Positions 4,116 through 28,577 are shown, counted from the stretch's first letter. The stretch: DNA of 39,013 bases from Minisyncoccota bacterium (GCA_030157745.1 JAOAUE010000032.1:1-39013); one strand, 5' to 3'. Notes: a model not told the origin generated them from the sequence alone. A program made the numbers and translations.

Positions 4116-6830
4116 CTACAATATTTTTTTAAGATACTCTCCGGTAAAGCTATGTTTGTTATTGGCGACTTCTTCTGGGGTACCTTTGGCGATAATTTTT
4201 CCGCCCGCTATTCCTCCTTCGGGACCAAAGTCGATAAGGTGGTCAGCACATTTGATAAGGTCGAGGTTGTGTTCAATCACCACGACAGTGTTGCCTTTGG
4301 CTACAAGGCGATTTAAAACTCCTATCAAGTTCTTTACGTCATCATAGTGAAGCCCAACAGTTGGTTCATCGAGAAGATAAATAGTTTTTTCTAAGTAAGG
4401 ACGATAAAGTTCACTAGCGATTTTTACGCGTTGCGCTTCTCCACCTGATAGTGTTGTGGCGCTTTGTCCGAGCTTCACATATCCTAGCCCTACTTCTGAT
4501 AGAGTTTTGAGTCTGTCATAAACAGCTGGTATATCAGCAAAAAATTCCAAACCTTCTTCAACAGACATTTGCAAAACATCATAAATATTTTTGCGCTTGT
4601 ATTTTACAGTGAGAGTTTCTTTATCAAATCTTTTCCCGCCACAAACATCACAGGTGACATACACAGTTGGCAAAAAGTGCATCTCTACTGCTATCTCTCC
4701 GTTACCTTCACAGGCTTCACATCTTCCACCTTTGACATTGAAAGAAAATCTGTTGACCTTCCATCCACGCAGACGCGCTTCTTCTGTTTGAGCAAATATG
4801 TCTCTGATATGGGTAAATGCTCCTGTATATGTAGCAATATTTGATCTAGGAGTACGACCTATTGGAGACTGATCTATCATGATGGCGCGGGCTAGATATT
4901 CGGTACCAGTAAAAGATGCGCAGTTGTAAACCTTGGCACTACGAAGTTTGCGCTCAAATCTAGCTTGGAGATTTTTGTACAAGATTTCATAAAGAAATGT
5001 ACTCTTACCACTTCCTGAGACTCCAGTGATAGCAACCATTTTTCCAAGTGGTACATCTATATTTTGATTGTGAATATTATGAAGATTTGCTCCGACAATT
5101 TTCAAAACCCCTTTGTCTTGGTCTCGACGCTTCTCTGGAGTTTCTATTTCCTCTTCTTTACGCAAATAAGCTAGAGTTCGAGAACCGCTTTCGTTTTTCT
5201 TGGCGGAGAGAAGTTTGTCCAAATACCCAGAAACAATGACTTGCCCTCCATGGACACCAGCACCAGGGCCAATATCAACAAGATAGTCTGAAGCATAGAT
5301 AGTATCTTCATCATGCTCAACAACCAAAATAGTGTTACCCATATCACGTAGATCTTCCAAAGTCCTTATAAGTCTTTCATTGTCTCTTTGGTGTAGGCCA
5401 ATAGTCGGCTCATCGAGTACATACATGGCCCCTACAAGTCGAGACCCGAGCTGAGAAGCTAGTCTGATACGCTGTGCTTCTCCTCCAGAGAGAGTGTTGG
5501 CGGTACGAGAAAGAGCCAAGTAGTTGAGCCCAACATTAAGAAGAAAGTTCAAACGATCTTCTATTTCTTTGAGAACTGCTTTGGCAACCTCCATATCCTT
5601 GGCCGAGAGTTTGAGAGAGCCAAAGAACTCAAAAGCTTCTTCTACAGAAAGCGAGGTGAGGTCAACGATATTAATTTTCGTCGACTTAAGACTAGTACTT
5701 TTTTTCGTGTCTGGCATAGCGCTAGCTACGAGATCCGAGGACCGAGAAAACCCTGCAGACTTGGCGCTTGTAGACTCCAAAAATACATTCAAAGCTTCTG
5801 GGCGAAGTCTCTTGCCTCCACAAACTTCACAAGCCTCTGTGCCACCAAAGAACTTTGTTCCAATACCATTACACTCAGGACAAGCTCCATATGGCGAGTT
5901 GAAAGAGAAAAGTCTCGGCTCAATCTCTGGAAAAGAATACCCATCATTTGGGCAAGAGAACTTGGAAGACATCAAAAACTCTTGAAGAGTTTGTGTCTCC
6001 ATATCAAAGTCTTCTGATACACCAAAAACTACTTGGACCAATCCATCAGCCTCAAGGAGAGCTCGCTCTGTTGCTTCAAAGAGTCGGAGCTCTGCATCTC
6101 GAGGGCTATCTTTAAATTCGTGAACCGCTAATTCATCTACTAAAACTTCGATAGTATGCTTGTCATTTTTCTTGAGCTCTATACGCTCTCGGAGTTTGTG
6201 AATCTTGCCATCAATACGCACAGTGCTAAAACCTTTACCTATCAGATCATATAGGAGTTGATAGTACTCCCCCTTTCTTCCGCGAACAATCGGCGCATAT
6301 ATTTGAATTCGAGTGTCATTAAATTCCACACCCATTACGGACTTATTTTTAGCTTTAGAAAATTCTTTTATCTTTCCTAAAATAAAAGTATTTATTTCCT
6401 CTGGAGAGAGCTTTTGTATAAGAGTGCCACAAACAGGACAATATGCCTTGCCGACACGCGCATATAGCACGCGCATATAGTCATACATTTCAGTGATTGT
6501 CGCGACCGTAGAGCGAGGATTGTTGGAGCGAGATTTTTGGTCAATGGAAATCGCAGGAGAAAGACCACTGATTTCATCAACATCAGGCTTGGGCATTTGG
6601 TTTAAAAATTGCCGAGCATAACTAGATAGACTCTCCACGTAACGACGCTGTCCTTCCGCGAAGATAGTATCAAAAGCCAAAGAGCTCTTGCCGGAGCCTG
6701 AAAGTCCGGTAATAGCGATCATTTTACCTCGAGGCATCTCAACAGACACATTTTTGAGGTTGTGTGTTCGAGCACCTTTGACTACTATAAGCCCAGCATT
6801 TGATTCATTTTTTGACTCTGCTTTCTTCAT
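4116..6830 (-). CDS. uvrA: excinuclease ABC subunit UvrA
   Basis: Two ABC modules (GLSGSGKSSLAFDT, GVSGSGKSTF, two LSGGEAQR signatures) and CxxC zinc modules. The ATG at 6830 (MKKAESK...) is preferred; the ORF track starts at a GTG at 6890. Confidence 0.95.
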   Translation of the reverse strand: MKKAESKNESNAGLIVVKGARTHNLKNVSVEMPRGKMIAITGLSGSGKSSLAFDTIFAEGQRRYVESLSSYARQFLNQMPKPDVDEISGLSPAISIDQKSRSNNPRSTVATITEMYDYMRVLYARVGKAYCPVCGTLIQKLSPEEINTFILGKIKEFSKAKNKSVMGVEFNDTRIQIYAPIVRGRKGEYYQLLYDLIGKGFSTVRIDGKIHKLRERIELKKNDKHTIEVLVDELAVHEFKDSPRDAELRLFEATERALLEADGLVQVVFGVSEDFDMETQTLQEFLMSSKFSCPNDGYSFPEIEPRLFSFNSPYGACPECNGIGTKFFGGTEACEVCGGKRLRPEALNVFLESTSAKSAGFSRSSDLVASAMPDTKKSTSLKSTKINIVDLTSLSVEEAFEFFGSLKLSAKDMEVAKAVLKEIEDRLNFLLNVGLNYLALSRTANTLSGGEAQRIRLASQLGSRLVGAMYVLDEPTIGLHQRDNERLIRTLEDLRDMGNTILVVEHDEDTIYASDYLVDIGPGAGVHGGQVIVSGYLDKLLSAKKNESGSRTLAYLRKEEEIETPEKRRDQDKGVLKIVGANLHNIHNQNIDVPLGKMVAITGVSGSGKSTFLYEILYKNLQARFERKLRSAKVYNCASFTGTEYLARAIMIDQSPIGRTPRSNIATYTGAFTHIRDIFAQTEEARLRGWKVNRFSFNVKGGRCEACEGNGEIAVEMHFLPTVYVTCDVCGGKRFDKETLTVKYKRKNIYDVLQMSVEEGLEFFADIPAVYDRLKTLSEVGLGYVKLGQSATTLSGGEAQRVKIASELYRPYLEKTIYLLDEPTVGLHYDDVKNLIGVLNRLVAKGNTVVVIEHNLDLIKCADHLIDFGPEGGIAGGKIIAKGTPEEVANNKHSFTGEYLKKIL

Positions 6831-17224: not shown

Positions 17225-17300
17225 GCCGCTTTAGCTCAGTTGGTAGAGCAACGCTTTTGTAAAGCGAAGGTCGTCAGTTCAAGTCTGACAAGCGGCTCCA
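17225..17300 (+). tRNA. tRNA-Thr (anticodon TGT) with encoded CCA
   Basis: Manual cloverleaf fold: acceptor GCCGCTT/AAGCGGC; D arm GCTC-AGTTGGT-AGAGC; anticodon arm ACGCT-TTTGTAA-AGCGA with anticodon TGT; variable loop AGGTC; T arm GTCAG-TTCAAGT-CTGAC; discriminator T plus CCA. Confidence 0.9.
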
Positions 17301-18828
17301 TCACTCGCATTTCGTCGGGAATACTAAAATTAGCACGGGCGGCGCGAAGCGCCGACCACGGATTTTCGCCTGATTTTGAAACAGCATTCTCGGAATTCGG
17401 CGCGCTCGCACGCACTGTTTTTTCGCCAAGGAGGAGGTTCGAGCCAAAGACTTTTTTGGCAGCAACCTTTTTATCTAAAAAGTTGCTATCCAATGCGATT
17501 TTTTCCATATCCTGAGCCTCTTTTATCCATTTTGCCATCGGTTCGAGCCACAATTTTTGTTTGCTCTCCGAACGAGAGATTTCTTCCTCCAGCGACTTTT
17601 TCTCGGATAATAATTTTGCTTTTTCCGCTCGATAAATTTCCTTTTCTATATCTTGATCTAAATATCCGTCTAAAAGTCGCTGGAGCTTCACTGTGATGCC
17701 TTGTATCTTTTTCTCGTTTTCGAAAACAAAAATATGAACAGATTGGGCGGATTCCGTTTTGTCTTTTTCAAGTCTTTCATTCAGATAATCCGCCCAATCT
17801 TGTGGCATAGAAACTTTTTGAAGAAGTGATGAAATTTGCGCGTCCATTTTTTCTGCTCGAATACAAGGTTCAGGGCATTTTTGAGTTTTTGATTTCTTGG
17901 TACAGCGATAATATGTATAGAAATGTTGAGTACCATTTTTCTGCGTTTTTACCTTGTATTCGCCAGTTATTTGCATTCCGCACGACGCGCACGAAAGCAG
18001 TCCGCAATATGCTTGTGGATTATTCTTATGCTTACCAGTCGGACGACTTTTCCGCTCCATCACTTCTTGCACCTGGTCAAAAAGTTTCTTTGACACGATT
18101 GGCTCGTGCTTGCCTTCGTGTACTTCGAGATTAAACCTGAAATGTCCGTAATAAAATGGATTTGAGAGGATAAAGGTCGTACGCGAGATGTGGATTCTCT
18201 TTCCTTGTTTGGTTAGCAAGCGGTTTGCTTCAAAATACTCGCCGATACTTTGAAGTGTAGAATCTCCTTTTGCGTAAAGTTCAAATGCTTGGCGAATAAT
18301 CGGAGCAGTCTTTTTGTCAGCAACAACAGTTTTCGTCCTCGAATCGTTTATATACCCCACCGGAGCCAGACTTGGATATTCGCCACGCCTGACTTTCTGC
18401 CGCAAACCGCGCTTCGTATTTTCGGAAAGAGAATCCACATAGTATTTGCTTTGTCCAAATGCCATATTGAGCATAAACTTGCCTTGTGAACTGCTGTCAC
18501 ACCAAAATGTCGGGAATTTTAAACTCACAAGTTTTTCTGTGTCGAGGAGATAGATAATACGCCCACCATCAACAGAATTACGAGCGAGACGGTCAGGATG
18601 CCACGCGAGAATATTTCCGCCGAGTTTTTCAATTTCATTTAGCATCTCGTTAAATATCGGACGACCAGGAATCTTGGCAGATTGTTTTTCCACATACTCG
18701 GCGGAGATTTCAATATTCTCTCGCGTGGCATAGTCTCGCAATTCTTGAAGTTGTGCTTCAATCGAAAGAACCTGCTTATCCTCGACATCAGTTGACTTGC
18801 GAGCATACAAAAAGAATTTTTCACTCAT
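17236..18828 (-). CDS. large serine recombinase (resolvase/invertase N-terminal domain, recombinase domain, zinc ribbon, coiled coil)
   Basis: YARKSTDVEDKQVLSIEAQ catalytic-Ser region; WHPDRLARN; Cys-rich CASCGMQ...YYRCTKK...CPEPC; long coiled coil. The last ~42 codons lie in inverted repeat IR1, and the final 20 codons read antisense through the tRNA, so the exact functional C-terminus is uncertain. Confidence 0.85.
   Translation of the reverse strand: MSEKFFLYARKSTDVEDKQVLSIEAQLQELRDYATRENIEISAEYVEKQSAKIPGRPIFNEMLNEIEKLGGNILAWHPDRLARNSVDGGRIIYLLDTEKLVSLKFPTFWCDSSSQGKFMLNMAFGQSKYYVDSLSENTKRGLRQKVRRGEYPSLAPVGYINDSRTKTVVADKKTAPIIRQAFELYAKGDSTLQSIGEYFEANRLLTKQGKRIHISRTTFILSNPFYYGHFRFNLEVHEGKHEPIVSKKLFDQVQEVMERKSRPTGKHKNNPQAYCGLLSCASCGMQITGEYKVKTQKNGTQHFYTYYRCTKKSKTQKCPEPCIRAEKMDAQISSLLQKVSMPQDWADYLNERLEKDKTESAQSVHIFVFENEKKIQGITVKLQRLLDGYLDQDIEKEIYRAEKAKLLSEKKSLEEEISRSESKQKLWLEPMAKWIKEAQDMEKIALDSNFLDKKVAAKKVFGSNLLLGEKTVRASAPNSENAVSKSGENPWSALRAARANFSIPDEMRVMEPLVRLELTTFALQKRCSTN
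17296..17421 (+). repeat. inverted repeat IR1, left copy (126 bp)
   Basis: Exact reverse complement of 18907-19032, checked base by base. Imperfect extension to 17442 / 18886. Confidence 0.9.
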
Positions 18829-18906
18829 TTATTGATTCTAACAAAAATTCTTTTTGTATGTAAATAGCAAAAATTGCATTTGATTTCGAACCTCCTCCTC
18901 CAAAAC

Positions 18907-19032
18907 AAAACAGTGCGTGCGAGCGCGCCGAATTCCGAGAATGCTGTTTCAAAATCAGGCGAAAATCCGTGGTCGGCGCTTCGCGCCGCCCGTGCTAATT
19001 TTAGTATTCCCGACGAAATGCGAGTGATGGAG
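18907..19032 (-). repeat. inverted repeat IR1, right copy (126 bp); a duplicated recombinase 3' end
   Basis: Exact reverse complement of 17296-17421. Read on the plus strand it encodes ...SNLLLQNKTVRASAPNSENAVSKSGENPWSALRAARANFSIPDEMRVME, the recombinase C-terminal peptide. Confidence 0.9.
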
Positions 19033-19215
19033 TGGTTGTACGATTCGGCTCGAACCTATTTCATCAAAAATTCATAAATGTATTAAATGCGGACTCGGTT
19101 TTGCGAAAGCTCTTTTTTGGGGACACGGATTTCGCAAAACCTCGGCTGATTCTTTTTTGGCATTCGCCTCTGGTTCTGGGTTCTCCCGCAGGAGGGGTTT
19201 GGGGAGGAATGCGGG
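19030..19215 (+). repeat. inverted repeat IR2, left copy (186 bp)
   Basis: Exact reverse complement of 26046-26231, checked base by base. Overlaps IR1-right by the 3-nt GAG core. Ends 2 nt before the RT1 stop codon. Confidence 0.9.
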
Positions 19216-19217
19216 GG

Positions 19218-20306
19218 TTATTTTGGGTCTTTGAGAAAATGTTTAAACTTATTCCGTAAGCGATAACTATTGGCATGAGAAAAATGTCCGAGATATGAGC
19301 TTATGCCAGCTTGTAATTTCTCTCGCGTTTTCTCGTGGCAAGGAAGCCTCAATTTTTCTGCCCTCTGTTTACACCTTCCAACAGTTGCCCGACGAACGAG
19401 GACATGAGTGGGCTTGATAATATACCCGACGAAGTCAATACCGTGGCGCACTCGTTGCAAGATAATTTTCCGCGGATGGATGTTGAGCTTGCGTTCTCTC
19501 TTCAGCCACACTTCTATCTGTACCACCGCACTCTTTAATTTTTCTTTATCCGCATCAAGAAATACGAAATCGTCCACATACCTCGCGTAGCGAGGAAATC
19601 CGAGCGTCTGGCTGATATATTTATCAAGCCCGTCGAGATAGCAGTTAGCGAAGAATTGCGAGGTCAAGTTCCCTATCGGCAAGCCCGTACCGCCGGAGTA
19701 AAAGAGTGATTTATGTTTCGGGATAAGTGCTTTGAGTGCAGTATCTCCCCTGTAAATATAATCAAGTGTCGGGTCACAAAAGATAACCTGCTCGCAAATC
19801 CAAAGCATATCCCCTTTCCACCACTCGGGTTTTTCTTGCTGATTGATAAGCCCTGCGATGACATCAAAAAGAATTGGTCGGTCAATCGAACGGAAGAAGC
19901 TCTCGACATCAAGCTTCAGATACCAATCATTCGGGCGCTCTCGGGCATAGGCACGCACTTGCTTGAATCCTGAGTGCGTCCCCTTGCCTTCCCTATTGGC
20001 ATACGAAGTTGGCACGAACCAACTTTCGCACAAAGGAGCAAGCTCGTTGTAAATAATATGGTGTATAACCCGATCACGAAAGTCGGCAGCAAAAATCTCT
20101 CTCGGCTTCGGGTCAGTCACGACAAAAGAAATATGTCGACTGATGCAGTATGTCCGTTCAGTGAGTTCTTTCCGCAGACTGATAAGCTCGCGCTCCCGCA
20201 AGAGTTCAAACCGAAGTCGATTGACTGTTTTCTTTTTACGCTTGATACAGCTCTTGTACGCCAGCCAGAGATTCTCTAAGGTAAAAATAGTTTCTACTGT
20301 ATTCAT
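19218..20306 (-). CDS. DGR reverse transcriptase 1
   Basis: RT motifs, including the DGR-typical LPIGNLTSQFFANCYL and the YxDD box YARYVDDFVFL. Lies immediately downstream of TR1. Start taken at ATG 20306 (MNTVETIFTLENLWLAYK); alternative start 20327. The track ORF extends to 20606 only by reading through TR1. Confidence 0.9.
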   Translation of the reverse strand: MNTVETIFTLENLWLAYKSCIKRKKKTVNRLRFELLRERELISLRKELTERTYCISRHISFVVTDPKPREIFAADFRDRVIHHIIYNELAPLCESWFVPTSYANREGKGTHSGFKQVRAYARERPNDWYLKLDVESFFRSIDRPILFDVIAGLINQQEKPEWWKGDMLWICEQVIFCDPTLDYIYRGDTALKALIPKHKSLFYSGGTGLPIGNLTSQFFANCYLDGLDKYISQTLGFPRYARYVDDFVFLDADKEKLKSAVVQIEVWLKRERKLNIHPRKIILQRVRHGIDFVGYIIKPTHVLVRRATVGRCKQRAEKLRLPCHEKTREKLQAGISSYLGHFSHANSYRLRNKFKHFLKDPK

Positions 20307-20354
20307 TTGGTCTGTTATTGTGCGCATAAAGCAGAGGGTTCGATAGAGGAGTTC

Positions 20355-20491
20355 TCGAACACACCGGACATAGTTGCCATTGGTCTTATCATTCGCATCA
20401 GAGTTGCCATTGTTGAAGTTCACGTTCCAGGCGTTGTTCTCATTGCCCGGATTCTGATAGGTAGAGGACGACCAGTAGTTGTCCGACTGTG
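20355..20491 (-). repeat. DGR-1 template repeat (TR1, 137 bp)
   Basis: Aligns without gaps to 21137-21273 with 25 mismatches. 24 of them are at TR adenines (sense strand). Asn (AAY) codon-rich in frame. Confidence 0.9.
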
Positions 20492-20605
20492 AAATATGAT
20501 ATGTGCGTGACTGTCCGTGTCGGACGTACAGCGCAAATTCGTTTCGTTTATCCTCAGAACTATTAAAAATAATTCTGAGAGCACACACTGAACTCCTCGT
20601 CCTCA

Positions 20606-21007
20606 CTAAAACAATGTTTTTATAGTTGTCTTATTCTGGGTGGGCGCAGTTTTTTTCGGACTGCACGAAGTTCTCCAACCCTCTGCTTGACGCGCGCAAT
20701 CCACCACTTGCTCGACCAGATACAAGTATTGCCGCGGCGAAGCGAACTGCTTCAGCTCCTCGGCTACGCGGAGCATAATCGTAATCTCCTCAATCTTCCA
20801 AACCAACTCACTCAAAACAGCACTCCTGTGTTCAACCGGAGTGCTATTGGCTTTTACGATCAGCCGTACTGCTTCCATCGCGCTTGCAAGGAGCGATGCG
20901 CCGAGCGTGTACTTGTATTGCTTGTCTATTTTCGGCACACGAATGTAGAACTCTTTCAGGAGCCTGAACGTTGCGCTATAGATAGGGAGGTGTTGGTATT
21001 GAGCCAT
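20606..21007 (-). CDS. avd: DGR accessory variability determinant (Avd-like four-helix-bundle protein)
   Basis: 133 aa helical, basic protein in the canonical position between the target gene and TR/RT. Sequence resembles the four-helix-bundle (23S rRNA IVS protein) family. Confidence 0.75.
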   Translation of the reverse strand: MAQYQHLPIYSATFRLLKEFYIRVPKIDKQYKYTLGASLLASAMEAVRLIVKANSTPVEHRSAVLSELVWKIEEITIMLRVAEELKQFASPRQYLYLVEQVVDCARQAEGWRTSCSPKKTAPTQNKTTIKTLF

Positions 21008-21025
21008 AGAAAAATATCACCCCCC

Positions 21026-21047
21026 CCCCTCGCGAAAACGCGAGGGG
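21026..21047 (-). promoter_or_regulatory. GC-rich hairpin (9-bp stem, 4-nt loop) downstream of VR1, embedded in a G10 tract
   Basis: CCCCTCGCG-AAAA-CGCGAGGGG on the plus strand. About 86 nt 3' of the target stop codon and 19 nt 5' of the avd ATG. Confidence 0.5.
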
Positions 21048-21133
21048 AAGAATAACCAAAGGAATAAAAAGAATCGAGAAAAGAACCCAAAGAAAAACCG
21101 CAAAAATTATCAAATAAACAAATCATCAAAGAA

Positions 21134-21976
21134 TTATCGAACACACCGGACATAGCCGCCCTCGGCCTTACCAACCGCATCAGAGTAGCCATCGCCGAAG
21201 CTCACGAGCCAGGCGCCGCCCTCACCGCCCGGACCCTGATAGGTAGAGGACGACCAGTAGCTGCCCGACTGTGTGTTTGGGAAGAATGTCGTATCGATGG
21301 CAGGGTTGACTGTGGCAAGGCTCACAATGGAAAGAAGTTCGATTCTATTTGGCAAGCGCCAGTCACTGTGTCCCGCTGTGGTATCGGCTTCACAGGTCGA
21401 GAGCGCAGTCGTCCAGTCAAGTCCAGTAGCAGAATCAGCCGAACAGTCAGTATCTGATTGTCCTTCGGAACATTTTTTCCACATAAGTCCTGTCGCGTTA
21501 TCCGAAATCGTGCTGTCAGTATTATCTACAAATCGCGCGCCGCTTGTGGGTAAACCTTTTTCGTAGTCGCCATCTTGTCCGGTACCAGTACACGATATTG
21601 GAGTACCACTTGCATCCCAACAATCAGTCTGACCAGTTTTTGGTAGTCCAGCTTGTCCAGCCGATGCAGTACCTGCAACGCCCATATATGTCGTCCCTGT
21701 GAGTATTTTAGTCGCATCAAGCGTCGGAATGCTTTCATAAATCTGCTTGAGGGTGTGAAATGTCGCAGACACAGAGCCAGGCGTAGTAAACGAAGCCGAA
21801 CCTTCGACTTGGCTTGTCGTGTTGTCGATGAGTCTGTTGTAAATGCCATCGAGTGTGTACATCGTGCTTGCCGGAACTCCAGGCGGAGTAAGCGAACCTG
21901 CAAAACTTGTGCGGACAAATGCACCGATTATAAATGCGACGAGAACAAAGGAACCGATTTTTAGAAACTTTTTCAT
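21134..21976 (-). CDS. DGR-1 variable target protein, secreted DUF1566 (Lcl C-terminal / C-type-lectin-fold) protein
   Basis: Signal peptide. GLMWKK...HSDWRLPNRIELLSIV...YWSSSTY...YVRCVR is the DUF1566 signature. The C-terminal 45 codons are VR1. Confidence 0.9.
   Translation of the reverse strand: MKKFLKIGSFVLVAFIIGAFVRTSFAGSLTPPGVPASTMYTLDGIYNRLIDNTTSQVEGSASFTTPGSVSATFHTLKQIYESIPTLDATKILTGTTYMGVAGTASAGQAGLPKTGQTDCWDASGTPISCTGTGQDGDYEKGLPTSGARFVDNTDSTISDNATGLMWKKCSEGQSDTDCSADSATGLDWTTALSTCEADTTAGHSDWRLPNRIELLSIVSLATVNPAIDTTFFPNTQSGSYWSSSTYQGPGGEGGAWLVSFGDGYSDAVGKAEGGYVRCVR
21137..21273 (-). repeat. DGR-1 variable repeat (VR1)
   Basis: 137-bp match to TR1 with adenine-specific substitutions, at the extreme 3' end of the target ORF. 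Confidence 0.9.
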
Positions 21977-21977
21977 A

Positions 21978-22856
21978 TTATTTACTATTTAATTTATTTC
22001 TTGTAATAGGACCGACGATGCCATCTGCTGTGAGAGTATTATTTTTTTGAAACGTTACCACCGCTTGCTTGCTCTTTGGACCAAAAATGCCGTCAGTCAC
22101 TAAAGGTGGCGACAATGTCTGAACTTTTTTGTTGAGACATATTTGCAAGTCTTTGACGTTGGTGTTATTCATCCGAGGAATTGTCAGCTTTAAAGTTTGA
22201 GTGAAGTTGAGTGTACACACTGTAGTAGGTAAAGTTGTCGGAAGTGTTGTAATCACAATAGTTCCCTCGCTTGCAGTCAAATACGATCCTTTGCAATCTG
22301 GATCAGCTAAATCAATCTTCCCATCGTGGTCATCGTCAATGCCATTGTTGCACTGTGTGATTATTCGCCCTCCCCCACTACTGTGACTAGTACTTGGTGC
22401 GGGCGTGACTGGTGGTCGCCACGCAGTCGTCACTTTGTAGTCCACTGTCCCGCAACTTGAAGTGTTGGCGCAGTTAAAAGAGATCCAACCGATATTTGGG
22501 CTATATGCGTAGCCAGAAAAAATTCCAGTGCTTGTGTTGATGGTCGCCTGAGAGAAATCCACATAGCCAGTATTCTCGCTCCACGCGTAACCTGAGAGTG
22601 TGCCGGAGGAATTTGAAACTTTGTAATCAGTGGTACCGCATGAACTAGTGTTATCACAATTGAGCGACAACCAGCCGATGTTCGGACTGTACGCATAGCC
22701 GGAAAGTACGCTACTTGAAACAGTCACTTGAGAAAAATCTATCCAGCCAGTATTCTCGCTCCAGGCATAACCGGAGGTGCTATCTGCAAACGCTTTTGTC
22801 GCAGAGAAAAACATTATTGATAATATGAATAAACTAAAAACGGATTTTAATCTCAT
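21978..22856 (-). CDS. secreted repeat protein with a C-terminal peptidoglycan-binding domain
   Basis: Signal peptide. Two ~70-aa repeats carrying GYAWSENTGW(I/V)DFSQ and GYAYSPNIGW(L/I)S(L/F)NC. C-terminal PG_binding_1-like DGIFGPKSKQAVVTFQKNNTLTADGIVGPITRNKL. Its stop is 1 nt from the DGR-1 target start. Confidence 0.8.
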   Translation of the reverse strand: MRLKSVFSLFILSIMFFSATKAFADSTSGYAWSENTGWIDFSQVTVSSSVLSGYAYSPNIGWLSLNCDNTSSCGTTDYKVSNSSGTLSGYAWSENTGYVDFSQATINTSTGIFSGYAYSPNIGWISFNCANTSSCGTVDYKVTTAWRPPVTPAPSTSHSSGGGRIITQCNNGIDDDHDGKIDLADPDCKGSYLTASEGTIVITTLPTTLPTTVCTLNFTQTLKLTIPRMNNTNVKDLQICLNKKVQTLSPPLVTDGIFGPKSKQAVVTFQKNNTLTADGIVGPITRNKLNSK

Positions 22857-22877
22857 TCTATTATTATACCCCCCCCC
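22857..22877 (-). promoter_or_regulatory. G9 tract abutting a TATAAT box 6 nt upstream of the ATG (candidate leaderless promoter of the DGR-1 operon)
   Basis: The minus strand reads GGGGGGGGG-TATAAT-AATAGA-ATG. Confidence 0.4.
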
Positions 22878-22904
22878 GAGCGTTTTGGCAAGGGTGTTGC
22901 CCCC

Positions 22905-23930
22905 CTATTCCTTGTTAAAATCGGCCGTTTGAGAACGCTTTACATACTCAACAACTTGCCCCGCGAGCCTCTCTGCGTTTCCGTGGCTCAATAGCCCGAG
23001 ATACGACTGAACTGTTTCTTCCTTGCCCTCTTTCTCTTTGATACGCTTCCACATCCTGCGTTTCGTTGCCGTTCTTACTATGCGGTGATCGGGAAAATGT
23101 ACCCAGCCGAGGAAATCAACACCGGAGGCAAGCGTCTTTATAAAAACTTTATTGGGATGAAGTGATAGCTTGAGTCGTTCTTTTAGGAAAGAACCTACTT
23201 GGGGTAGTATCGTTTCCAACCATTTCTTGTCTTCAGACAGAAAAACAAAATCGTCAGCATAGCGTATATAGTATTGTGCTTTCAACTTGTGCTTCACGAA
23301 TTGGTCAAACTCATTCATATATATGTTTACGAATATCTGCGAGGTAAGATTGCCAAGTGGAAGCCCAACCTCTTTTCGTGTCGAATGAAAACTCCCGATG
23401 ATACCTGATAACAAAGAGAGTATGTCTTCGTCAGAAATATATTTCTTGATAATCCCGATAAGTACACTATGGTCAATGGATGCAAAAAACTTTCGTATAT
23501 CGCATTTCAAAATCCATACTGTTCTTGTGTTATTTTTTGATACTGTGTCAGAAAACATTTTAAATCGTTGTAACGCTTTATGTGTTCCCTTTCGCTCTCG
23601 GCAAGAATAGGAGTCAGCTATAAATGTCTTATCGAAGAATGGATAGAGTTCCCGATAGAGTGCATGGTGAAGCAGTCTATCCCGCACCCTTGCTTTATGT
23701 ATACTTCGTGGCTTTGGGTCAGATATATTGAATGCGTAATAGTCGGAGTGCTTATATGTTTTTTGTGAAAGTTCATTGTGAAGCTCTATGATATTCGCCA
23801 TTAAATTTCGCTCAAAATCCAAGACATCTTTTCGGAGTTTTTTACCTTTCAAAAAATCTTTCCACGCAAGGAGGAGATTTTCAAGAGAAATGATATATTG
23901 ATATGTATGAATAAACTGAATCCGAGCCAT
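22905..23930 (-). CDS. DGR reverse transcriptase 2
   Basis: LPLGNLTSQIFVNIYM and YIRYADDFVFL motifs; N-terminal ...SLENLLLAWKDFLKGKK. Paired with TR2/VR2. ATG at 23930 preferred; the track start at 23960 translates the G-tract. Confidence 0.9.
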   Translation of the reverse strand: MARIQFIHTYQYIISLENLLLAWKDFLKGKKLRKDVLDFERNLMANIIELHNELSQKTYKHSDYYAFNISDPKPRSIHKARVRDRLLHHALYRELYPFFDKTFIADSYSCRERKGTHKALQRFKMFSDTVSKNNTRTVWILKCDIRKFFASIDHSVLIGIIKKYISDEDILSLLSGIIGSFHSTRKEVGLPLGNLTSQIFVNIYMNEFDQFVKHKLKAQYYIRYADDFVFLSEDKKWLETILPQVGSFLKERLKLSLHPNKVFIKTLASGVDFLGWVHFPDHRIVRTATKRRMWKRIKEKEGKEETVQSYLGLLSHGNAERLAGQVVEYVKRSQTADFNKE

Positions 23931-23992
23931 AATAACTATAAAGATACCCCCCCCCGACAACGCTTTTACCAGTACTTCAGAAACTCAAAACT

Positions 23993-24313
23993 GTGTATAT
24001 CTTATGGTATCAGTATTATCAAAACTTGCCTAAAGCCCATCGCTACTCGCTTGGAGTACGGATTGATGCCTTGTTCGTAGAAATAATGGAAGCTATCTCA
24101 CTTGCAGGATTTCTTCCCCGTAGCGAGAAACAAACCTATGTACGGCTCTCTATACGGAAAGTAGATACTCTTAAAATCTTACTGATGATTGTATGGGAAA
24201 CGAAATCTATAGATAATAGGAAATACATCGCCCTCTCTGTACCACTTGAAGAAATCGGGAAAATGCTCGGCGGTTGGAACGGACAGCTTACAAAACAAAA
24301 CTCCCCCAACTAA
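23993..24313 (+). CDS. avd: Avd-like four-helix-bundle protein, divergent from RT2
   Basis: 106 aa helical protein (…AHRYSLGVRIDALFVEIMEAI…KVDTLKILLMIVWETKSIDNRKYIALSVPLEEIGKMLGGW). GTG start. Lies between RT2 and TR2 but on the opposite strand. Confidence 0.65.
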   Translation: MYILWYQYYQNLPKAHRYSLGVRIDALFVEIMEAISLAGFLPRSEKQTYVRLSIRKVDTLKILLMIVWETKSIDNRKYIALSVPLEEIGKMLGGWNGQLTKQNSPN

Positions 24314-24337
24314 ATAGTTGAGGGAGAAAGAAGAGAG

Positions 24338-24440
24338 TTGCGAACACCAGCGAACCACCAATTGTCATTCCAGTCGTTATCATTACGATTGACATTCACG
24401 TTACGCTCGTCGTCATTCCAGTGGTTGAACGTGGCAATTT
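24338..24440 (-). repeat. DGR-2 template repeat (TR2, ~103 bp)
   Basis: Gap-free alignment to 24803-24905 with 20 mismatches, all at TR adenines (sense strand). In-frame translation is Asn-rich (NVNVNRNDNDWNDNWWFAGVR). Confidence 0.9.
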
Positions 24441-24676
24441 GTACAAAGTATCATCTGTGCCACTGCCCTTTGAATACTCTCGGGGCTGTATCGTATTTGC
24501 GATCATAATCGCTCGATACTCTGTACCAAGTATCTTCATTTTTTGTTTGAAGTTTCTACATACACCACTCTATCCTAAGCCGTAGCCCTAGATATTCTCA
24601 ATGTATGGATACTGGGATCGGTAGCGGACAATCGTGATCGTCCACATATTCACCTACTGCCATGATTATTTTAGCA

Positions 24677-24709
24677 TAAAAAATACCCCTGCGTTTTATG
24701 CGAGGGGTA
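24677..24709 (-). terminator. rho-independent terminator after the DGR-2 target gene
   Basis: The minus strand reads ACCCCTCGCATAAAACGCAGGGGT followed by ATTTTTTAT. Confidence 0.55.
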
Positions 24710-24798
24710 GGAAGTTTGTAAAACCTCCAAAACTTTTTGCGAACGAAGGGCAAAGTTCAAAGTGTCAAAATAGGACAGAGTGAACAAAATCCTAAGTA

Positions 24799-25410
24799 CT
24801 ACTTGCGAACACCAGCGAACCACCAACCGTCATCCCAGCCGTCATCACCACGACTGACAAACACGCTACGCCCGCCGCCATTCCAGCGGTCGAACGCGGC
24901 AAAGCACCATTTACCATTTGCATCCTTCCAGTGTGTACCATTAGGATATTTGTCAGCAAAGGCAGGATCAGCTTCGTTTACAGCAGCCTGTGAATACGGG
25001 TCGGCGGGTTTTAATCCACGGAGGTCATATTCTTTTTCCAGGTCGTTGTCATTAACAAAGCGACCAAGGTTAAAGAAGAAAACTTCTGTTTCTTCGCCTT
25101 CTCCTTTTGGCATTTTGGCAACAACACCGCTATCAGTGTATTGCTTCCTGCCTGTGGCATCCAACATTTCTTTTGGTGATCGGTTGCGGTTTACTTTTAC
25201 CTTGCGGATAATCAGATTACTGATCGCATCCACACGTTTAAGGATTGAAGCATACATCTCATCCAATAATGTTTCATCTCCAAGCACTTGCTGGAAAAGA
25301 TTACTTGGAAGCTCATTTTTGTGCTTCAGTAATCGTGCAGTCAAGTTTTGGTTTAATTTACCGATTTGACCTTCGGTAACAGGTTCTGTTGATGGGGTCA
25401 TAGTGTCCAT
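24799..25410 (-). CDS. DGR-2 variable target protein (no signal peptide; C-terminal CLec/FGE-like variable region)
   Basis: 203 aa. The C-terminus ...WCFAAFDRWNGGGRSVFVSRGDDGWDDGWWFAGVRK is VR2. No N-terminal hydrophobic segment. Confidence 0.85.
   Translation of the reverse strand: MDTMTPSTEPVTEGQIGKLNQNLTARLLKHKNELPSNLFQQVLGDETLLDEMYASILKRVDAISNLIIRKVKVNRNRSPKEMLDATGRKQYTDSGVVAKMPKGEGEETEVFFFNLGRFVNDNDLEKEYDLRGLKPADPYSQAAVNEADPAFADKYPNGTHWKDANGKWCFAAFDRWNGGGRSVFVSRGDDGWDDGWWFAGVRK
24803..24905 (-). repeat. DGR-2 variable repeat (VR2)
   Basis: Matches TR2 with adenine-specific substitutions, at the 3' end of the ORF. Confidence 0.9.
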
Positions 25411-25599
25411 GGCGTCATCGTTTTAATTGTTTGTGCCATCGGACTATACCTTCGTGGTATAGCCATAGCCAAAAAGTGCTTAGAGATAAGAACCTTTTGG
25501 CTATGGCTATGTTGCAAGTAGATGTAAAAGAGCTGTTCCGAGCTGTATAATAGCATAATAAACCATAAAAGTCAATCTTTGAGTTTAGAAATGGAGCGA

Positions 25600-26045
25600 T
25601 GACCTATTCACGGGGAGTGTCTTCCGTGCGCGCGAATGGGTGGGATAGTCCGCCTGTATTCAGGCGGACTGGGTCAAGCGCAGTTGCATCTGAGCCTCGG
25701 GCATTTCCGCTATGAGCGTCCAATGGCTAAAGGATGAGCGCCGTGGGTAATCGAAGTGGAATATGTAAATAGCGAAGCAAAAGATACACGCTAATATGAA
25801 AAGCGTGGAGTGGGTGTGGCGAGGGCGCACGACGAGGAACGAGGAGTATATCGCCCGACCCAGGGAGAGGAGACTTCCTCTCCCTAAGAAGCGCGGGTGA
25901 TAACCCGCACATAGGCACCTAGGCGCGAGTAGCCATAGCGGAAATGCCCGAGGCGGATGCCGAGGGTGCATCCCCTTTAGACTTGGACAATACATAGCAG
26001 AGAAATGACTGAGACAATGATTTAGTCCTGTTTCTTTCTTAGAAG
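25600..26045 (+). ncRNA. candidate large structured RNA or DNA element (unclassified)
   Basis: ORF-poor and GC-rich. A perfect 21-bp long-range helix pairs 25693-25713 with 25933-25953. Nested hairpins: AGTCCGCC/GGCGGACT at 25648-25671, AGGGAGAGGA/TCCTCTCCCT at 25862-25885, GCGGGT/ACCCGC. A TATAAT box lies at 25546-25551. Strand and ends are uncertain. Confidence 0.4.
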
Positions 26046-26231
26046 CCCGCATTCCTCCCCAAACCCCTCCTGCGGGAGAACCCAGAACCAGAGGCGAATG
26101 CCAAAAAAGAATCAGCCGAGGTTTTGCGAAATCCGTGTCCCCAAAAAAGAGCTTTCGCAAAACCGAGTCCGCATTTAATACATTTATGAATTTTTGATGA
26201 AATAGGTTCGAGCCGAATCGTACAACCACTC
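26046..26231 (-). repeat. inverted repeat IR2, right copy (186 bp), right end of the island
   Basis: Exact reverse complement of 19030-19215. Confidence 0.9.
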
Positions 26232-26244
26232 AAGGATATACAAA

Positions 26245-26310
26245 CAGTTGGTAGAGTTCTGTCAACGCATAACTAAAGCGAAAGGTCTTTCAAGTCTGAC
26301 AAGGGACTCC
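26245..26310 (+). pseudogene. degenerate partial tRNA-Thr copy (3' three-quarters)
   Basis: Shares CAGTTGGTAGAG, AACGC, AAGCGAA, GGTC and TTCAAGTCTGACAAG with the tRNA at 17225. It has an insertion, a broken T stem and no 5' acceptor strand. Confidence 0.65.
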
Positions 26311-26344: not shown

Positions 26345-27451
26345 TTATTCAACACTATGAATCTTTTTTTCTATATCTTCTTCTAAAGCAGTGACATGCT
26401 CCATTTCTTCTTTGAGAGACTGGTGTACTCTCTGCAATTCTTTTAGCTCATCTTCAACTTCACTAACGGTTTCTTTTTTTCTAGTTCTACTAAAAAGCAT
26501 TTTTATTTGAGTTTTCCTCAGTGTTACAACAGTGACAACTGTAGCTATGATAAGAACAATAAAACCAGCAAATATAAGCCACAAATGCAGGTTGTTATCA
26601 GCAGGAGATTCTTTTAGATTATTTGCGTTATCTATAGTACCTATATCTATCCATTTATCTATGATAACTTGCTTTTCAGCGTCAGAGAGAGCCTTGAGCC
26701 CTTGGTCTAGTATAAGCAAAAGTTCAGGTTTTGACTTTGGAACCGCAAATGAGTGTTTGTATTCAAAACCAGTACGACCGACTGCTTTTATATAAGAGAG
26801 CACATCCTTGCTTGTGTAATATGAAAGAGAAGCTAGATCCATAACAGCTGCGTCGACTTCTCCGAGGAGGAGTTTTTGTAGAGCGACTTCGTCATCAGAG
26901 ACAGGTACTATTTCAACCTTTTCATAGTTGGTCTTTATATAAGAAACAACTGGATAGCCCTCTCCTACTGCTACCTTTTTATTTTTAAAAGATGACAAAG
27001 ATGTTACGGTGCTTTTTTCTTTGAAGTCCTTTCTAACAACAACAACTGCTGGCATAGTAAGGTAAGAGTCGGTAAAATTGAAATTTTTCTCTAGTTCCTC
27101 TGTTGGGCTTAGAGAAAGTATGATGCTGTCGAAATCTAACTCCTTAGATTCTTTTAAAATCTCACCCAAAGAAGCCTCTTCTTCATAAGAGAGCTTTGCG
27201 CCGATTTTTGATGCAATTGCCTCTAAATATTCAGCTGACAAGCCCTTGATCTTCCTCGAAGTACCAGAGCCCAAAAAAACATAAGGGGGGTTACTCTTTT
27301 CCGGCTTTATAGAAATAGTACGATTGTATTTATTTAGCCATAAATTTTGAGTAGGAGTCAATACTTGAGCAGAAACTATAGATGCACTGAAAAAGCTTAG
27401 GCAAAAAATAGCCAGAAACACTGCTGAGATATATTTGCTGAGCTTGGGCAT
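26345..27451 (-). CDS. membrane-anchored solute-binding protein (SBP_bac_3-like domain, C-terminal TM helix, coiled coil)
   Basis: Signal peptide. Periplasmic-binding fold features (NPPYVFL, GLSAEYLEAIASKIG, DAAVMDLAS). TM helix LWLIFAGFIVLIIATVVTVVTL, then a charged coiled coil. Confidence 0.75.
   Translation of the reverse strand: MPKLSKYISAVFLAIFCLSFFSASIVSAQVLTPTQNLWLNKYNRTISIKPEKSNPPYVFLGSGTSRKIKGLSAEYLEAIASKIGAKLSYEEEASLGEILKESKELDFDSIILSLSPTEELEKNFNFTDSYLTMPAVVVVRKDFKEKSTVTSLSSFKNKKVAVGEGYPVVSYIKTNYEKVEIVPVSDDEVALQKLLLGEVDAAVMDLASLSYYTSKDVLSYIKAVGRTGFEYKHSFAVPKSKPELLLILDQGLKALSDAEKQVIIDKWIDIGTIDNANNLKESPADNNLHLWLIFAGFIVLIIATVVTVVTLRKTQIKMLFSRTRKKETVSEVEDELKELQRVHQSLKEEMEHVTALEEDIEKKIHSVE
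26792..26902. repeat. 111-bp block identical to 27945-28055 (direct repeat inside the paralogous SBP genes)
   Basis: Base-by-base identical. Encodes VSDDEVALQKLLLGEVDAAVMDLASLSYYTSKDVLSY in both genes. Confidence 0.9.
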
Positions 27452-27497: not shown

Positions 27498-28577
27498 TTA
27501 GTCTATACGCTCGATCTTCTCCTCTATAGACCTTTTTAACGAGTCTATTTCTTCTAAATTTTGCTCTAGGGTGTTGCTGGCAGACTCTAGTCGAGTAAGC
27601 TCAGTTTTGAGTTCAGCAGCCTCCTTAGACCTCTTTAGGCTTGCTATGTGATACCTATGATGCTTTCTCGAGTGAGCAATTATCAAAGTCAATAAAACTA
27701 TAATGATGACTATCCCAATGATGCTTATAGAGATCCATAGCGGACTTTGTAAGACCTTAGCGACTTTCTCACCTTTTGAATCTGTGTTTTCCTTAAATGT
27801 TATCCAACGGTCAGAAATAATACTTTTTTCTGTGGGTGTTATCTCTTTCAGCCCAGCATTTAATATTGTGATCATCTCAGGCATTGTTTTTGGGACAGCA
27901 AAAGATAGTTTGTACTCAAAGCCAGTTTGTCCACCAATAGCAACATAAGAGAGCACATCCTTGCTTGTGTAATATGAAAGAGAAGCTAGATCCATAACAG
28001 CTGCGTCGACTTCTCCGAGGAGGAGTTTTTGTAGAGCGACTTCGTCATCAGAGACGGGATCTAAAATTATTTTTGGGTAGTTGTCTTTGATATAATCGAA
28101 TGCTTCATAACCATTTGTTACAGCCAACTGTTTGGCCTCAAAATCAGCCAAGGTCAGCTCTTTTGGATGTCTAAAATCTTTTCTTACTACTATAACAGCG
28201 GGAAGAGAGATGAAAGCTTCTGAAAAATACATGTAGTCTAACCTTTCGTTTGATTCCGCAATCGCAAGTATAATGCCTTCTTTTCCTGATTTTATATCAG
28301 AGAGTATGGTGTTTCTAGATTTAGCTTCCAAAAATGTAGCTTGTGCGCCTACTTTTTTTGCGACGAGATCTAGATAGTCAACAGCAAGACCTTTGGGTCT
28401 GGCACTAGTAGAAGAAGAAAGGAAAGAAAAAGGCGGATAGTTACGCTCTGGCCTAGCTAACAAAGTGTTGTTGTGTTTTTTGAGCCAAGAGGACTGATCA
28501 GGAGTAAGAACATTGGCGCTCACCAAAGAGAATATACTTAAAAAACAAAAAGTTGTTAGTAAAAAATAACGGAGCAT
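27498..28577 (-). CDS. membrane-anchored solute-binding protein paralog (SBP_bac_3-like, TM helix, coiled coil)
   Basis: Same architecture as 26345..27451. Start set at ATG 28577 (MLRYFLLTTFCFLSIFSLVSA, a signal peptide). The track start at 28811 overlaps the upstream gene. Confidence 0.75.
   Translation of the reverse strand: MLRYFLLTTFCFLSIFSLVSANVLTPDQSSWLKKHNNTLLARPERNYPPFSFLSSSTSARPKGLAVDYLDLVAKKVGAQATFLEAKSRNTILSDIKSGKEGIILAIAESNERLDYMYFSEAFISLPAVIVVRKDFRHPKELTLADFEAKQLAVTNGYEAFDYIKDNYPKIILDPVSDDEVALQKLLLGEVDAAVMDLASLSYYTSKDVLSYVAIGGQTGFEYKLSFAVPKTMPEMITILNAGLKEITPTEKSIISDRWITFKENTDSKGEKVAKVLQSPLWISISIIGIVIIIVLLTLIIAHSRKHHRYHIASLKRSKEAAELKTELTRLESASNTLEQNLEEIDSLKRSIEEKIERID
27945..28055. 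repeat. 111-bp block identical to 26792-26902
   Basis: See the partner copy at 26792-26902. Confidence 0.9.

Follow-up and report, generated by a model that had tools for sequence, protein, structure and literature searches.

A canonical diversity-generating retroelement with natural repeat variation, carried by a 9-kb tRNA-Thr-associated element of a Candidatus Saccharibacteria bacterium

A 39,013-nt contig of a Minisyncoccota bacterium (GCA_030157745.1, JAOAUE010000032.1; "the window" below means this whole stretch) carries a reverse transcriptase (RT) gene beside two long, similar repeats, one of which forms the end of a gene for a secreted protein. Does this locus, here called DGR-1, encode a diversity-generating retroelement (DGR), and does that retroelement still rewrite its target? 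Comparison of the window with related public contigs, which we designate by L numbers, makes it highly probable that DGR-1 is a functional DGR of the Bordetella/Legionella type, resident on a 9-kb element that lies at tRNA-Thr in the genome of a Candidatus Saccharibacteria bacterium. The DGR properties that could be tested were all found: an RT with DGR-type motifs, an adenine-specific pattern of differences between template repeat (TR) and variable repeat (VR), a VR at the 3′ end of its gene, an accessory variability determinant (Avd), an RNA duplex bracketing TR, a lectin-fold target, and natural variation of the VR. All DGR-1 features lie on the minus strand.

The TR1/VR1 pair and its alleles

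A repeat search of the window revealed a 143-nt direct repeat (20349–20491 and 21131–21273, 81% identity) and no further VR for TR1. The 137-nt TR1 and VR1 within it align without gaps and differ at 25 positions, 24 of which are TR adenines (20 A>G, 3 A>T, and 1 A>C). The sole mismatch elsewhere is a T>G at TR 20379 / VR 21161, within an AAT>GAG codon change. With 41 adenines in 137 nt, at least 24 of 25 mismatches would fall on adenine by chance with a probability of 4.7e-12 (binomial) or 9e-15 (hypergeometric). Our recomputation reproduces the first-pass annotation of this DNA, made from the sequence alone, which had reported an ungapped 137-bp alignment with 25 differences, 24 of them at sense-strand adenines and the other a T to G in an AAT to GAG change. 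Its statement that Asn codons of TR give G, S, D, or A codons in VR stands except for Ala, which derives from a Thr codon (ACC>GCC). Beside its 13 AAY codons, TR1 contains a single codon convertible to stop (K270, AAG); judged by its codons, such an AAY-rich, stop-poor repeat is the classic design of a DGR template. VR1 has 17 variable codons (residues 238–274), corresponding to ~5e17 possible proteins.

The exact Avd1 sequence is present on 19 public contigs, ten of which were fetched and aligned to the window over 2.7–9 kb each. TR1 is identical in 10 of 10 contigs. VR1, in contrast to this invariant template, exists in six alleles (window included) with pairwise differences of 10–24 nt. Summed across the six alleles, the substitutions relative to TR are 71 A>G, 36 A>T, 7 A>C, and 2 T>G, so that 114 of 116 are at TR adenines; of the 43 adenines in the 143-nt repeat, 29 have been substituted in one allele or more. 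Positions differing from the window number 31 in VR1 and 23 in VR2, the variable repeat of a second retroelement (DGR-2, see below). Outside the VRs, the host tRNA accounts for 3 differences, one contig end for 11, and a cluster at 25897–25922 for 9 positions, and three G tracts show one-base length changes. Since differences outside the VRs are confined to a few small clusters, the VRs change far quicker than background mutation. The first-pass annotation had suggested looking for population variation restricted to TR-adenine positions; carried out as a comparison between samples, this analysis found VR1 variation almost only at TR-adenine sites. The between-sample variation of VR1 and VR2 attests directly to DGR activity among uncultured Saccharibacteria. 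Related cassettes follow the same pattern, with adenine/non-adenine mismatches of 16/0, 17/0, and 24/0 in L051 (RT 94% identical), L027, and L052 (65%), respectively.

Could the pattern instead be a fossil of past activity in a DGR whose diversification has ceased? Activity is read here from sequences alone, and genes are broken or uncalled in some related contigs (for example, avd uncalled in L021, RT2 truncated). We nevertheless consider a fossil improbable: the six VR1 alleles sit on element copies nearly free of non-VR substitutions, and every copy examined has the same intact RT1, Avd1, and TR1. Even less credit is due to the idea that the VR1 alleles are old ones shuffled between strains by homologous recombination. 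Such exchange is conceivable, for the element resides in several host backgrounds and chromosomal homologues of the target exist; yet ordinary divergence would strike every kind of base and extend to the remainder of the gene, whereas that remainder is identical between copies and 114 of 116 differences from the invariant TR are on adenines, the others being just two T>G.

Proteins and RNA structures of DGR-1

RT1 carries the motifs LPIGNLTSQ and YVDD (YVDDF), which align with IGxxxSQ and YxDD of the Bordetella enzyme bRT. The best match of RT1 in the Protein Data Bank (PDB) is bRT (8ub7, E 3.4e-45); the next matches, to Cas6-RT-Cas1, group II, and retron RTs, have E values of 5e-11 or weaker. 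These sequence matches support the placement of RT1 with the DGR enzyme. An ordinary partial gene duplication next to an RT of a group II intron, retron, or defence system is the least probable explanation of the locus: the best NCBIfam match of RT1 is indeed a group II intron RT/maturase model (E 1.2e-28, far under the cut-off, in a collection with no DGR RT model) and relatives are publicly named "retron-type" or "maturase," but among solved RTs bRT matches better than the next by 34 orders of magnitude, an Avd gene adjoins, mismatches are specific to adenine, and an Rfam scan of the window found no intron RNA or retron noncoding RNA family. Homologues of RT1 at ~50% identity number in the thousands in Patescibacteria metagenomes. 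In public contigs, RT1 starts at 20306 (MNTVETIF, 362 aa), with an alternative ATG at 20327. A 462-aa open reading frame (ORF) starting at 20606 (20606–19218) is a read-through of the in-frame TR, and its C-terminal 362 residues are the RT; database proteins are therefore annotated with both Lcl_C and RVT_1.

The 133-aa product of the gene between target and TR matches PHROG 3206, "Avd protein of DGR," over residues 1–125 (E 8.5e-19), as well as the Avd models of Pfam and NCBIfam discussed below. The Avd-like protein, the RT with its two motifs, and the target-avd-TR-RT order had all been read from the sequence in the first-pass annotation and are borne out by these matches. This gene order is architecture B1 of Wu et al. 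2017 (PMC5758913).

VR1 makes up the final 45 codons of the 280-aa target ORF, which ends YVRCVR. The N-terminus of the protein, MKKFLKIGSFVLVAFIIGAFVRTSFA followed by GS, is signal-peptide-like when read by eye. Residues 156–280 match Pfam Lcl_C (DUF1566) with an E value of 1.2e-33. An AlphaFold2 model built with 68 homologues has a predicted local distance difference test score of 86 overall and above 93 for residues 150–280; its top Foldseek match is 8q4e, the C-terminal domain of Legionella Lcl, followed by many C-type lectin-like domains. No match to the target was found in the PDB sequence search. The model thus supports a predicted C-type-lectin-like fold of the target C-terminus, that is, the variation-tolerant type of scaffold used by DGRs. 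Both the C-terminal location of VR1 in a signal-peptide protein and the DUF1566 lectin fold had been anticipated, the latter with a call for the structure prediction reported here.

A single base (21977) separates the end of the upstream PG_binding_1 gene from the target ATG, as had been noted earlier. Pairs of a peptidoglycan (PG)-binding protein and a DUF1566 protein recur in the relatives L024, L025, and L051. In L027, a repeat protein that is putatively of this type precedes the target. A promoter-like TTGCCA-17-TATAAT site has its −10 element ending 6 nt ahead of the ATG of the PG-binding gene. This gene pairing makes co-transcription of the two genes, and a shared function anchored to the cell wall, plausible.

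The pairs in L024 (1772–3595) and L025 (2375–3577) are chromosomal, with no RT on the respective contig. In L024, the protein shares 84% identity with the target, and its tail is VR-like, with 19 A and 5–7 non-A differences from TR1 or the L051 TR; a 74-nt piece of the 186-nt repeat described below lies upstream. Two readings fit the L024 pair: decay of an element, or a target that is served in trans. The L025 protein is 59% identical to the target and lacks a VR-like tail.

Table 1. Coordinates of DGR-1, DGR-2, and the integrative element in the window.
Feature	Position	Strand	Remarks
TR1, template repeat	20355..20491	minus	41 A, 13 AAY codons
VR1, variable repeat	21137..21273	minus	TR homology continues to 21131
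Target gene, 280-aa secreted protein, C-terminal Lcl_C/DUF1566 domain, predicted C-type-lectin-like	21134..21976	minus	ORF, Pfam, AlphaFold2, Foldseek
avd1, 133-aa accessory variability determinant	20606..21007	minus	Pfam, NCBIfam, PHROG models
RT1, DGR reverse transcriptase, 362 aa	19218..20306	minus	Pfam RVT_1 3e-17, PDB, PHROG 1423 1e-103
Upstream partner gene, 292 aa, secreted repeat protein with C-terminal PG_binding_1 domain	21978..22856	minus	ORF, Pfam
Promoter-like site TTGCCA-17-TATAAT, G9 tract inside spacer	22863..22891	minus	consensus match only, 11/12
Outer long-range helix, 5′ strand	20674..20692	minus	avd 3′ coding region, partner 20343–20325
Inner helix, 5′ strand GAGGAGUUC	20590..20598	minus	8 nt past avd stop, partner 20354–20346
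Spacer-like segment directly 3′ of TR	20325..20354	minus	3′ strands of both helices, overlaps RT gene start
IMH-like 3′ end of VR1	21131..21155	minus	function by analogy with BPP-1 IMH/IMH*
GC-rich hairpin, 9-bp core stem, loop TTTT	21021..21052	minus	between target stop and avd start
G10 tract, then −10-like TGATAT(T), 12 nt before avd ATG	21020..21029	minus	candidate avd-TR-RT promoter element
DGR-2	22905–25410		follows DGR-1 directly
RT2, 341 aa	23930–22905	minus	as called in public contigs
avd2	23993–24313	plus	
TR2	24437–24338	minus	
VR2	24902–24803		C-terminus of 203-aa protein, no Pfam match
Integrative element with DGR-1, DGR-2, and recombinase	17225..26231		tRNA-Thr junction to ~26231
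tRNA-Thr(UGU)	17225–17300		element at its 3′ end
Large serine recombinase, 530 aa	17236–18828	minus	
Left end of element			GCGAGTGATGGAG, then CCGCTT (tRNA)
Internal junction			GCGAGTGATGGAG, then TGGTTGTACGA
Right end of element			flank-T(T/G)GAG, then TGGTTGTACGA

In the minimum-free-energy fold of 20720–20250, the 3′ region of avd pairs with the segment directly after TR (z = −4.3). Covariation was assessed in an alignment of six relatives with RT identities of 53–94%. The outer helix (20692–20674/20343–20325) comprises 17 pairs that are 96% paired in the six relatives, five of them changed on both sides; the inner helix (20598–20590/20354–20346) comprises nine pairs, 94% paired, with four changed on both sides. 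For the helices overall, 88% of cells are paired compared to 39–46% in slid controls, 14 pairs are changed on both sides, and the covariation score was attained by 0 of 500 shuffles. The outermost seven pairs of a 27-nt inverted repeat flanking TR are 62% paired and unconserved and were dropped from the model. Cryo–electron microscopy of the Bordetella system revealed that the spacer downstream of TR forms duplexes with the 3′ end of TR and with upstream avd; the second of these (spacer/avd) is the "cPRT Stop," and such duplexes are predicted in 207 of 278 DGRs (bioRxiv 10.1101/2023.10.23.563531). DGR-1 fits this duplex scheme, its helices being shown by covariation and their role suggested by the "cPRT Stop."

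The 3′ end of VR1 is likewise consistent, by analogy with BPP-1, with action as an initiation of mutagenic homing (IMH)-like site. The 19 nt at 21155–21137 are the same as TR in all six VR1 alleles and are followed directly by the stop codon TAA. Two fixed non-adenine differences lie there, G/T at 20354/21136 and C/T at 20351/21133 (TR/VR), with the VR bases kept in six of six alleles; T21136 creates the stop (TAA in VR versus GAA in TR). Because the VR-specific bases beyond stay in every allele, information transfer ends at the VR stop, and no VR1 allele holds TR-specific bases beyond the 19-nt boundary.

Between the target stop and avd lies a hairpin that is a candidate terminator or DGR cruciform. 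Equivalents with 4-nt loops and other stem sequences occupy the same place in L051, L027, and L052; across the window and these three relatives, the loops are TTTT, CAAG, ATCA, and TTAG. The G tract ahead of avd1 is 10–11 nt long in other assemblies. Runs of at least seven G occur in the 39-kb window only at 21020–21029, 22869–22877, and 23947–23955, all on the sense strand and all inside the element, and each runs straight into a hexamer of the −10 type, with the start of a gene behind it (avd1, the PG-binding gene, and RT2, respectively). The middle tract is within the 17-nt spacer of the TTGCCA/TATAAT promoter-like site. Tract lengths range from 8 to 11 among assemblies, and the G-tract + TATAAT motif is found in the relatives L024, L027, L051, and L052 as well. 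The variable tracts may be phase-variable promoters or homopolymer assembly errors.

From these elements and by homology with known systems, we propose the following cycle. Transcription, possibly from the candidate G-tract/−10 promoter at 21029–21010, would yield an RNA that runs from the 3′ end of avd through TR1 into the beginning of the RT gene. Upstream segments 20692–20674 and 20598–20590 would pair with downstream segments 20343–20325 and 20354–20346, closing TR into a loop. An RT1-Avd1 complex would then copy TR to complementary DNA (cDNA) with misincorporation opposite template adenines, as expected from bRT-Avd. The cDNA would replace VR1, with transfer stopping at the invariant 19 nt ahead of the stop codon, and new sequence would appear at up to 17 codons of the C-type-lectin-like domain of the secreted protein. 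The target is probably co-expressed with its peptidoglycan-binding partner and may bind a ligand at a cell surface.

Several observations weigh against this reading of DGR-1 as an active DGR. The VR variation is between assembled consensus sequences of different samples, not within one population. The VR1 spectrum is skewed (G > T >> C), which could result from selection or RT bias, and two T>G substitutions, both abutting mutated adenines, depart from the adenine rule. Avd1 falls just below the Pfam bAvd gathering score (39.5 bits versus 40; E 8.7e-10), reaches 38.5 against a cut-off of 80 for NCBIfam DivGenRetAVD (E 1.1e-9), and has no PDB sequence match, even with a 4-sequence profile; its identification is by Pfam, NCBIfam, and PHROGs. 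The distance from TR to the RT start is 22–43 nt compared to a 140-nt spacer in Bordetella, and because the gap is so short any priming functions of the spacer would overlap the RT coding sequence. The post-VR hairpin, with a non-GRNA loop, is ~80 nt away from VR, whereas published DGR cruciforms have a 7- to 10-bp GC-rich stem and a 4-nt GRNA loop and lie nearer, 4–34 bp from VR (PMC3240598).

Both T>G substitutions are within AAT codons: AAT>GAG in the window (21161 / TR 20379) and AAT>AGG in VR1 of L001/L007. They may reflect a neighbour effect of RT misincorporation.

Relationship to known DGRs

The DGRs of Bordetella and Legionella are the closest to DGR-1 in organisation, and the Legionella/CLec2 group is the closest in target type. 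DGR-1 shares with the DGR of Bordetella phage BPP-1 (mtd-avd-TR-brt) the order of a target with 3′ VR, avd, TR, and RT, as well as adenine-specific TR-to-VR differences and an unchanging 3′ VR segment with TR-specific differences just past it. RT1 aligns with bRT along both halves, IGxxxSQ and YxDD being kept, with a ~50-aa insertion in RT1 between the two aligned blocks. In addition to the spacer length and the distant hairpin without a GRNA loop, the systems differ in their targets (a bacterial DUF1566/Lcl_C protein rather than the phage tail-fibre protein Mtd) and in their carriers (a serine-recombinase element, not a phage). DGR-1 also has two nested bracketing helices, the outer of which begins 183 nt upstream of TR, within avd.

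The Legionella pneumophila DGR (LdtA) resembles DGR-1 in its avd-TR-RT architecture and in having its VR within a DUF1566-type C-type-lectin fold, in a protein that is surface-exposed or secreted, and the Lcl C-terminal domain is the best structural match of the DGR-1 target model. Arambula et al. are said to have placed the Legionella DGR, in 2013, on a horizontally acquired island, as DGR-1 is. Unlike LdtA, a lipoprotein of a diderm outer membrane, the DGR-1 target has a plain putative signal peptide without a lipobox and a conserved peptidoglycan-binding partner gene; the host belongs to the candidate phyla radiation (CPR), and its element, just 9 kb long, contains a second DGR. DUF1566 targets constitute category d / CLec2, 14% of DGRs (Wu et al. 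2017, PMC5758913).

The host group links DGR-1 to the DGRs of CPR bacteria, which Paul et al. reportedly described in 2017; this phylum group is already known as DGR-rich. DGR-2 has the B3 order usual in the CPR set, whereas DGR-1 has the B1 order, typical outside CPR. Its target contains a recognisable Pfam domain, unlike most CPR DGR targets (Wu et al. 2017, PMC5758913).

Taken alone, DGR-1 is one more well-formed, canonical DGR among tens of thousands catalogued, and its presence in CPR is unsurprising. The main interest lies in the evidence of activity and in a compact mobile element that combines two DGRs with an odd inverted-repeat anatomy and variable G tracts. The locus provides a clean natural experiment, in which the same element is seen in many samples and at least four host species while VR1/VR2 differ in nearly every study. 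It suggests that a hypervariable surface lectin with its own mutator may spread horizontally among Saccharibacteria epibionts, which, if true, would be relevant to host attachment of the epibionts or to phage evasion. The conserved helices bracketing TR carry the Bordetella RNA model over to a far-removed lineage whose spacer is very short.

The integrative element and its other contents

Copies of the element that carries DGR-1 are at least 99.4% identical, with differences mostly in VRs, while the flanking genes for ribosomal protein S2 and EF-Ts are only 64–75% identical among four host backgrounds (the window, L001, L021/L022, and L023). The junction is at the 3′ end of tRNA-Thr in all four, and the tRNA shows host-specific compensatory changes. 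One carrier is named Candidatus Saccharibacteria. Because near-identical copies sit in hosts with divergent flanks, the element is mobile and spread recently; its horizontal spread among Saccharibacteria hosts is essentially shown. The first-pass annotation, whose description of the cassette holds, lacked this mobile-element context with its long inverted repeats.

The recombinase has Resolvase, Recombinase, and Zn_ribbon_recom domains (Pfam) and matches a PHROG "integrase" (2.8e-76). Beyond the two DGRs, no recognisable cargo is present, and genes of phage, plasmid, or conjugation type are lacking. A phage origin was considered and rejected: GenBank phages match only at the tRNA, and IMG/VR contains no relative and no attP-like junction. 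The element ends and an internal junction have a 3-nt core, GAG, in common (Table 1); judging from their sequences, the ends are what would be expected from recombination of an attP-like site with the tRNA 3′ end. The flank past the right end in the window reads ...AAGGATATAC. A circular junction would run from the recombinase 3′ end through ...GTGATGGAG and TGGTTG... to the unique sequence of the right end.

A 330-nt inverted copy of this joined-ends (attP-like) sequence persists inside the element. A perfect 186-nt inverted repeat (19030–19215 / 26046–26231) brackets both DGRs, a 147-nt one (96%; 17296–17442 / 18886–19032) brackets the recombinase gene, and the two inner arms abut to form the inverted copy. 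It is because of this internal copy that the recombinase gene and the DGR block are each flanked by long inverted repeats. The end of the recombinase ORF reads antisense through tRNA-Thr (...MEPLVRLELTTFALQKRCSTN), and the inverted copy of the recombinase 3′ end runs into ...MEWLYDSARTYFIKNS (ORF 18874–19077), the ending expected across the joined ends of an excised element. The alternative recombinase C-terminus expected of an excised or inverted form was not seen in the protein collection, which holds only 530-aa forms, and the fetched loci yielded no flipped, excised (circular junction), or empty-site form. The DGR block has the same orientation in all six assemblies that span a repeat arm (the window, L001, L002, L009, L021, and L022). 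Because many short-read contigs break at the inverted repeats, they are uninformative on inversion.

This element resembles those mobilised by large serine recombinases (phage-type serine integrases, Ccr of SCCmec, and TnpX/TndX transposons) in its Resolvase + Recombinase + Zn_ribbon_recom protein, the GAG core of its ends, its insertion at a tRNA 3′ end, and its near-identical copies in divergent hosts. It differs from them in that its cargo is just two DGRs and an inverted 330-nt attP-like copy is internal; no recombination directionality factor was found. It is tempting, but rather unlikely, that the 9-kb block is a minimal, autonomous "diversification cassette" in which two DGRs and their own secreted targets move among Saccharibacteria at tRNA-Thr, with phase variation at G tracts and with inversion of the DGR block, or of its own gene, by the recombinase, made possible by the internal joined-ends copy.

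The second retroelement, DGR-2, has the "B3" TR-(avd)-RT order, which 90% of the CPR set displays (Wu et al. 2017, PMC5758913). RT1 and RT2 are 34% identical. In three VR2 alleles, 52 of 52 substitutions relative to TR2 are at adenines.

The 25897–25922 cluster, found in L002 and L003, comprises seven substitutions and a 2-nt deletion; it lies in the stretch that separates the DGR-2 target from the right inverted repeat, and it alters which small ORF is open. Just beyond the right end, the window (26244–26310) and L021 (about 5682–5750) contain a degenerate tRNA-Thr copy without its 5′ end; the L002 flank lacks this copy. On the other side of the real tRNA gene, short pieces of the tRNA 5′ end are repeated, most clearly in L023 (1990–2150). 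The tRNA-Thr locus is suggested to be a repeatedly used integration site.

Another repeat pair, 26792–26980 / 27945–28133, was evaluated as an extra TR/VR and rejected: the surrounding mismatches are nonspecific, and the repeats are inside paralogous genes. These two adjacent SBP_bac_3 solute-binding genes share 113 nt of perfect identity amid diverged sequence, a pattern that resembles gene conversion.

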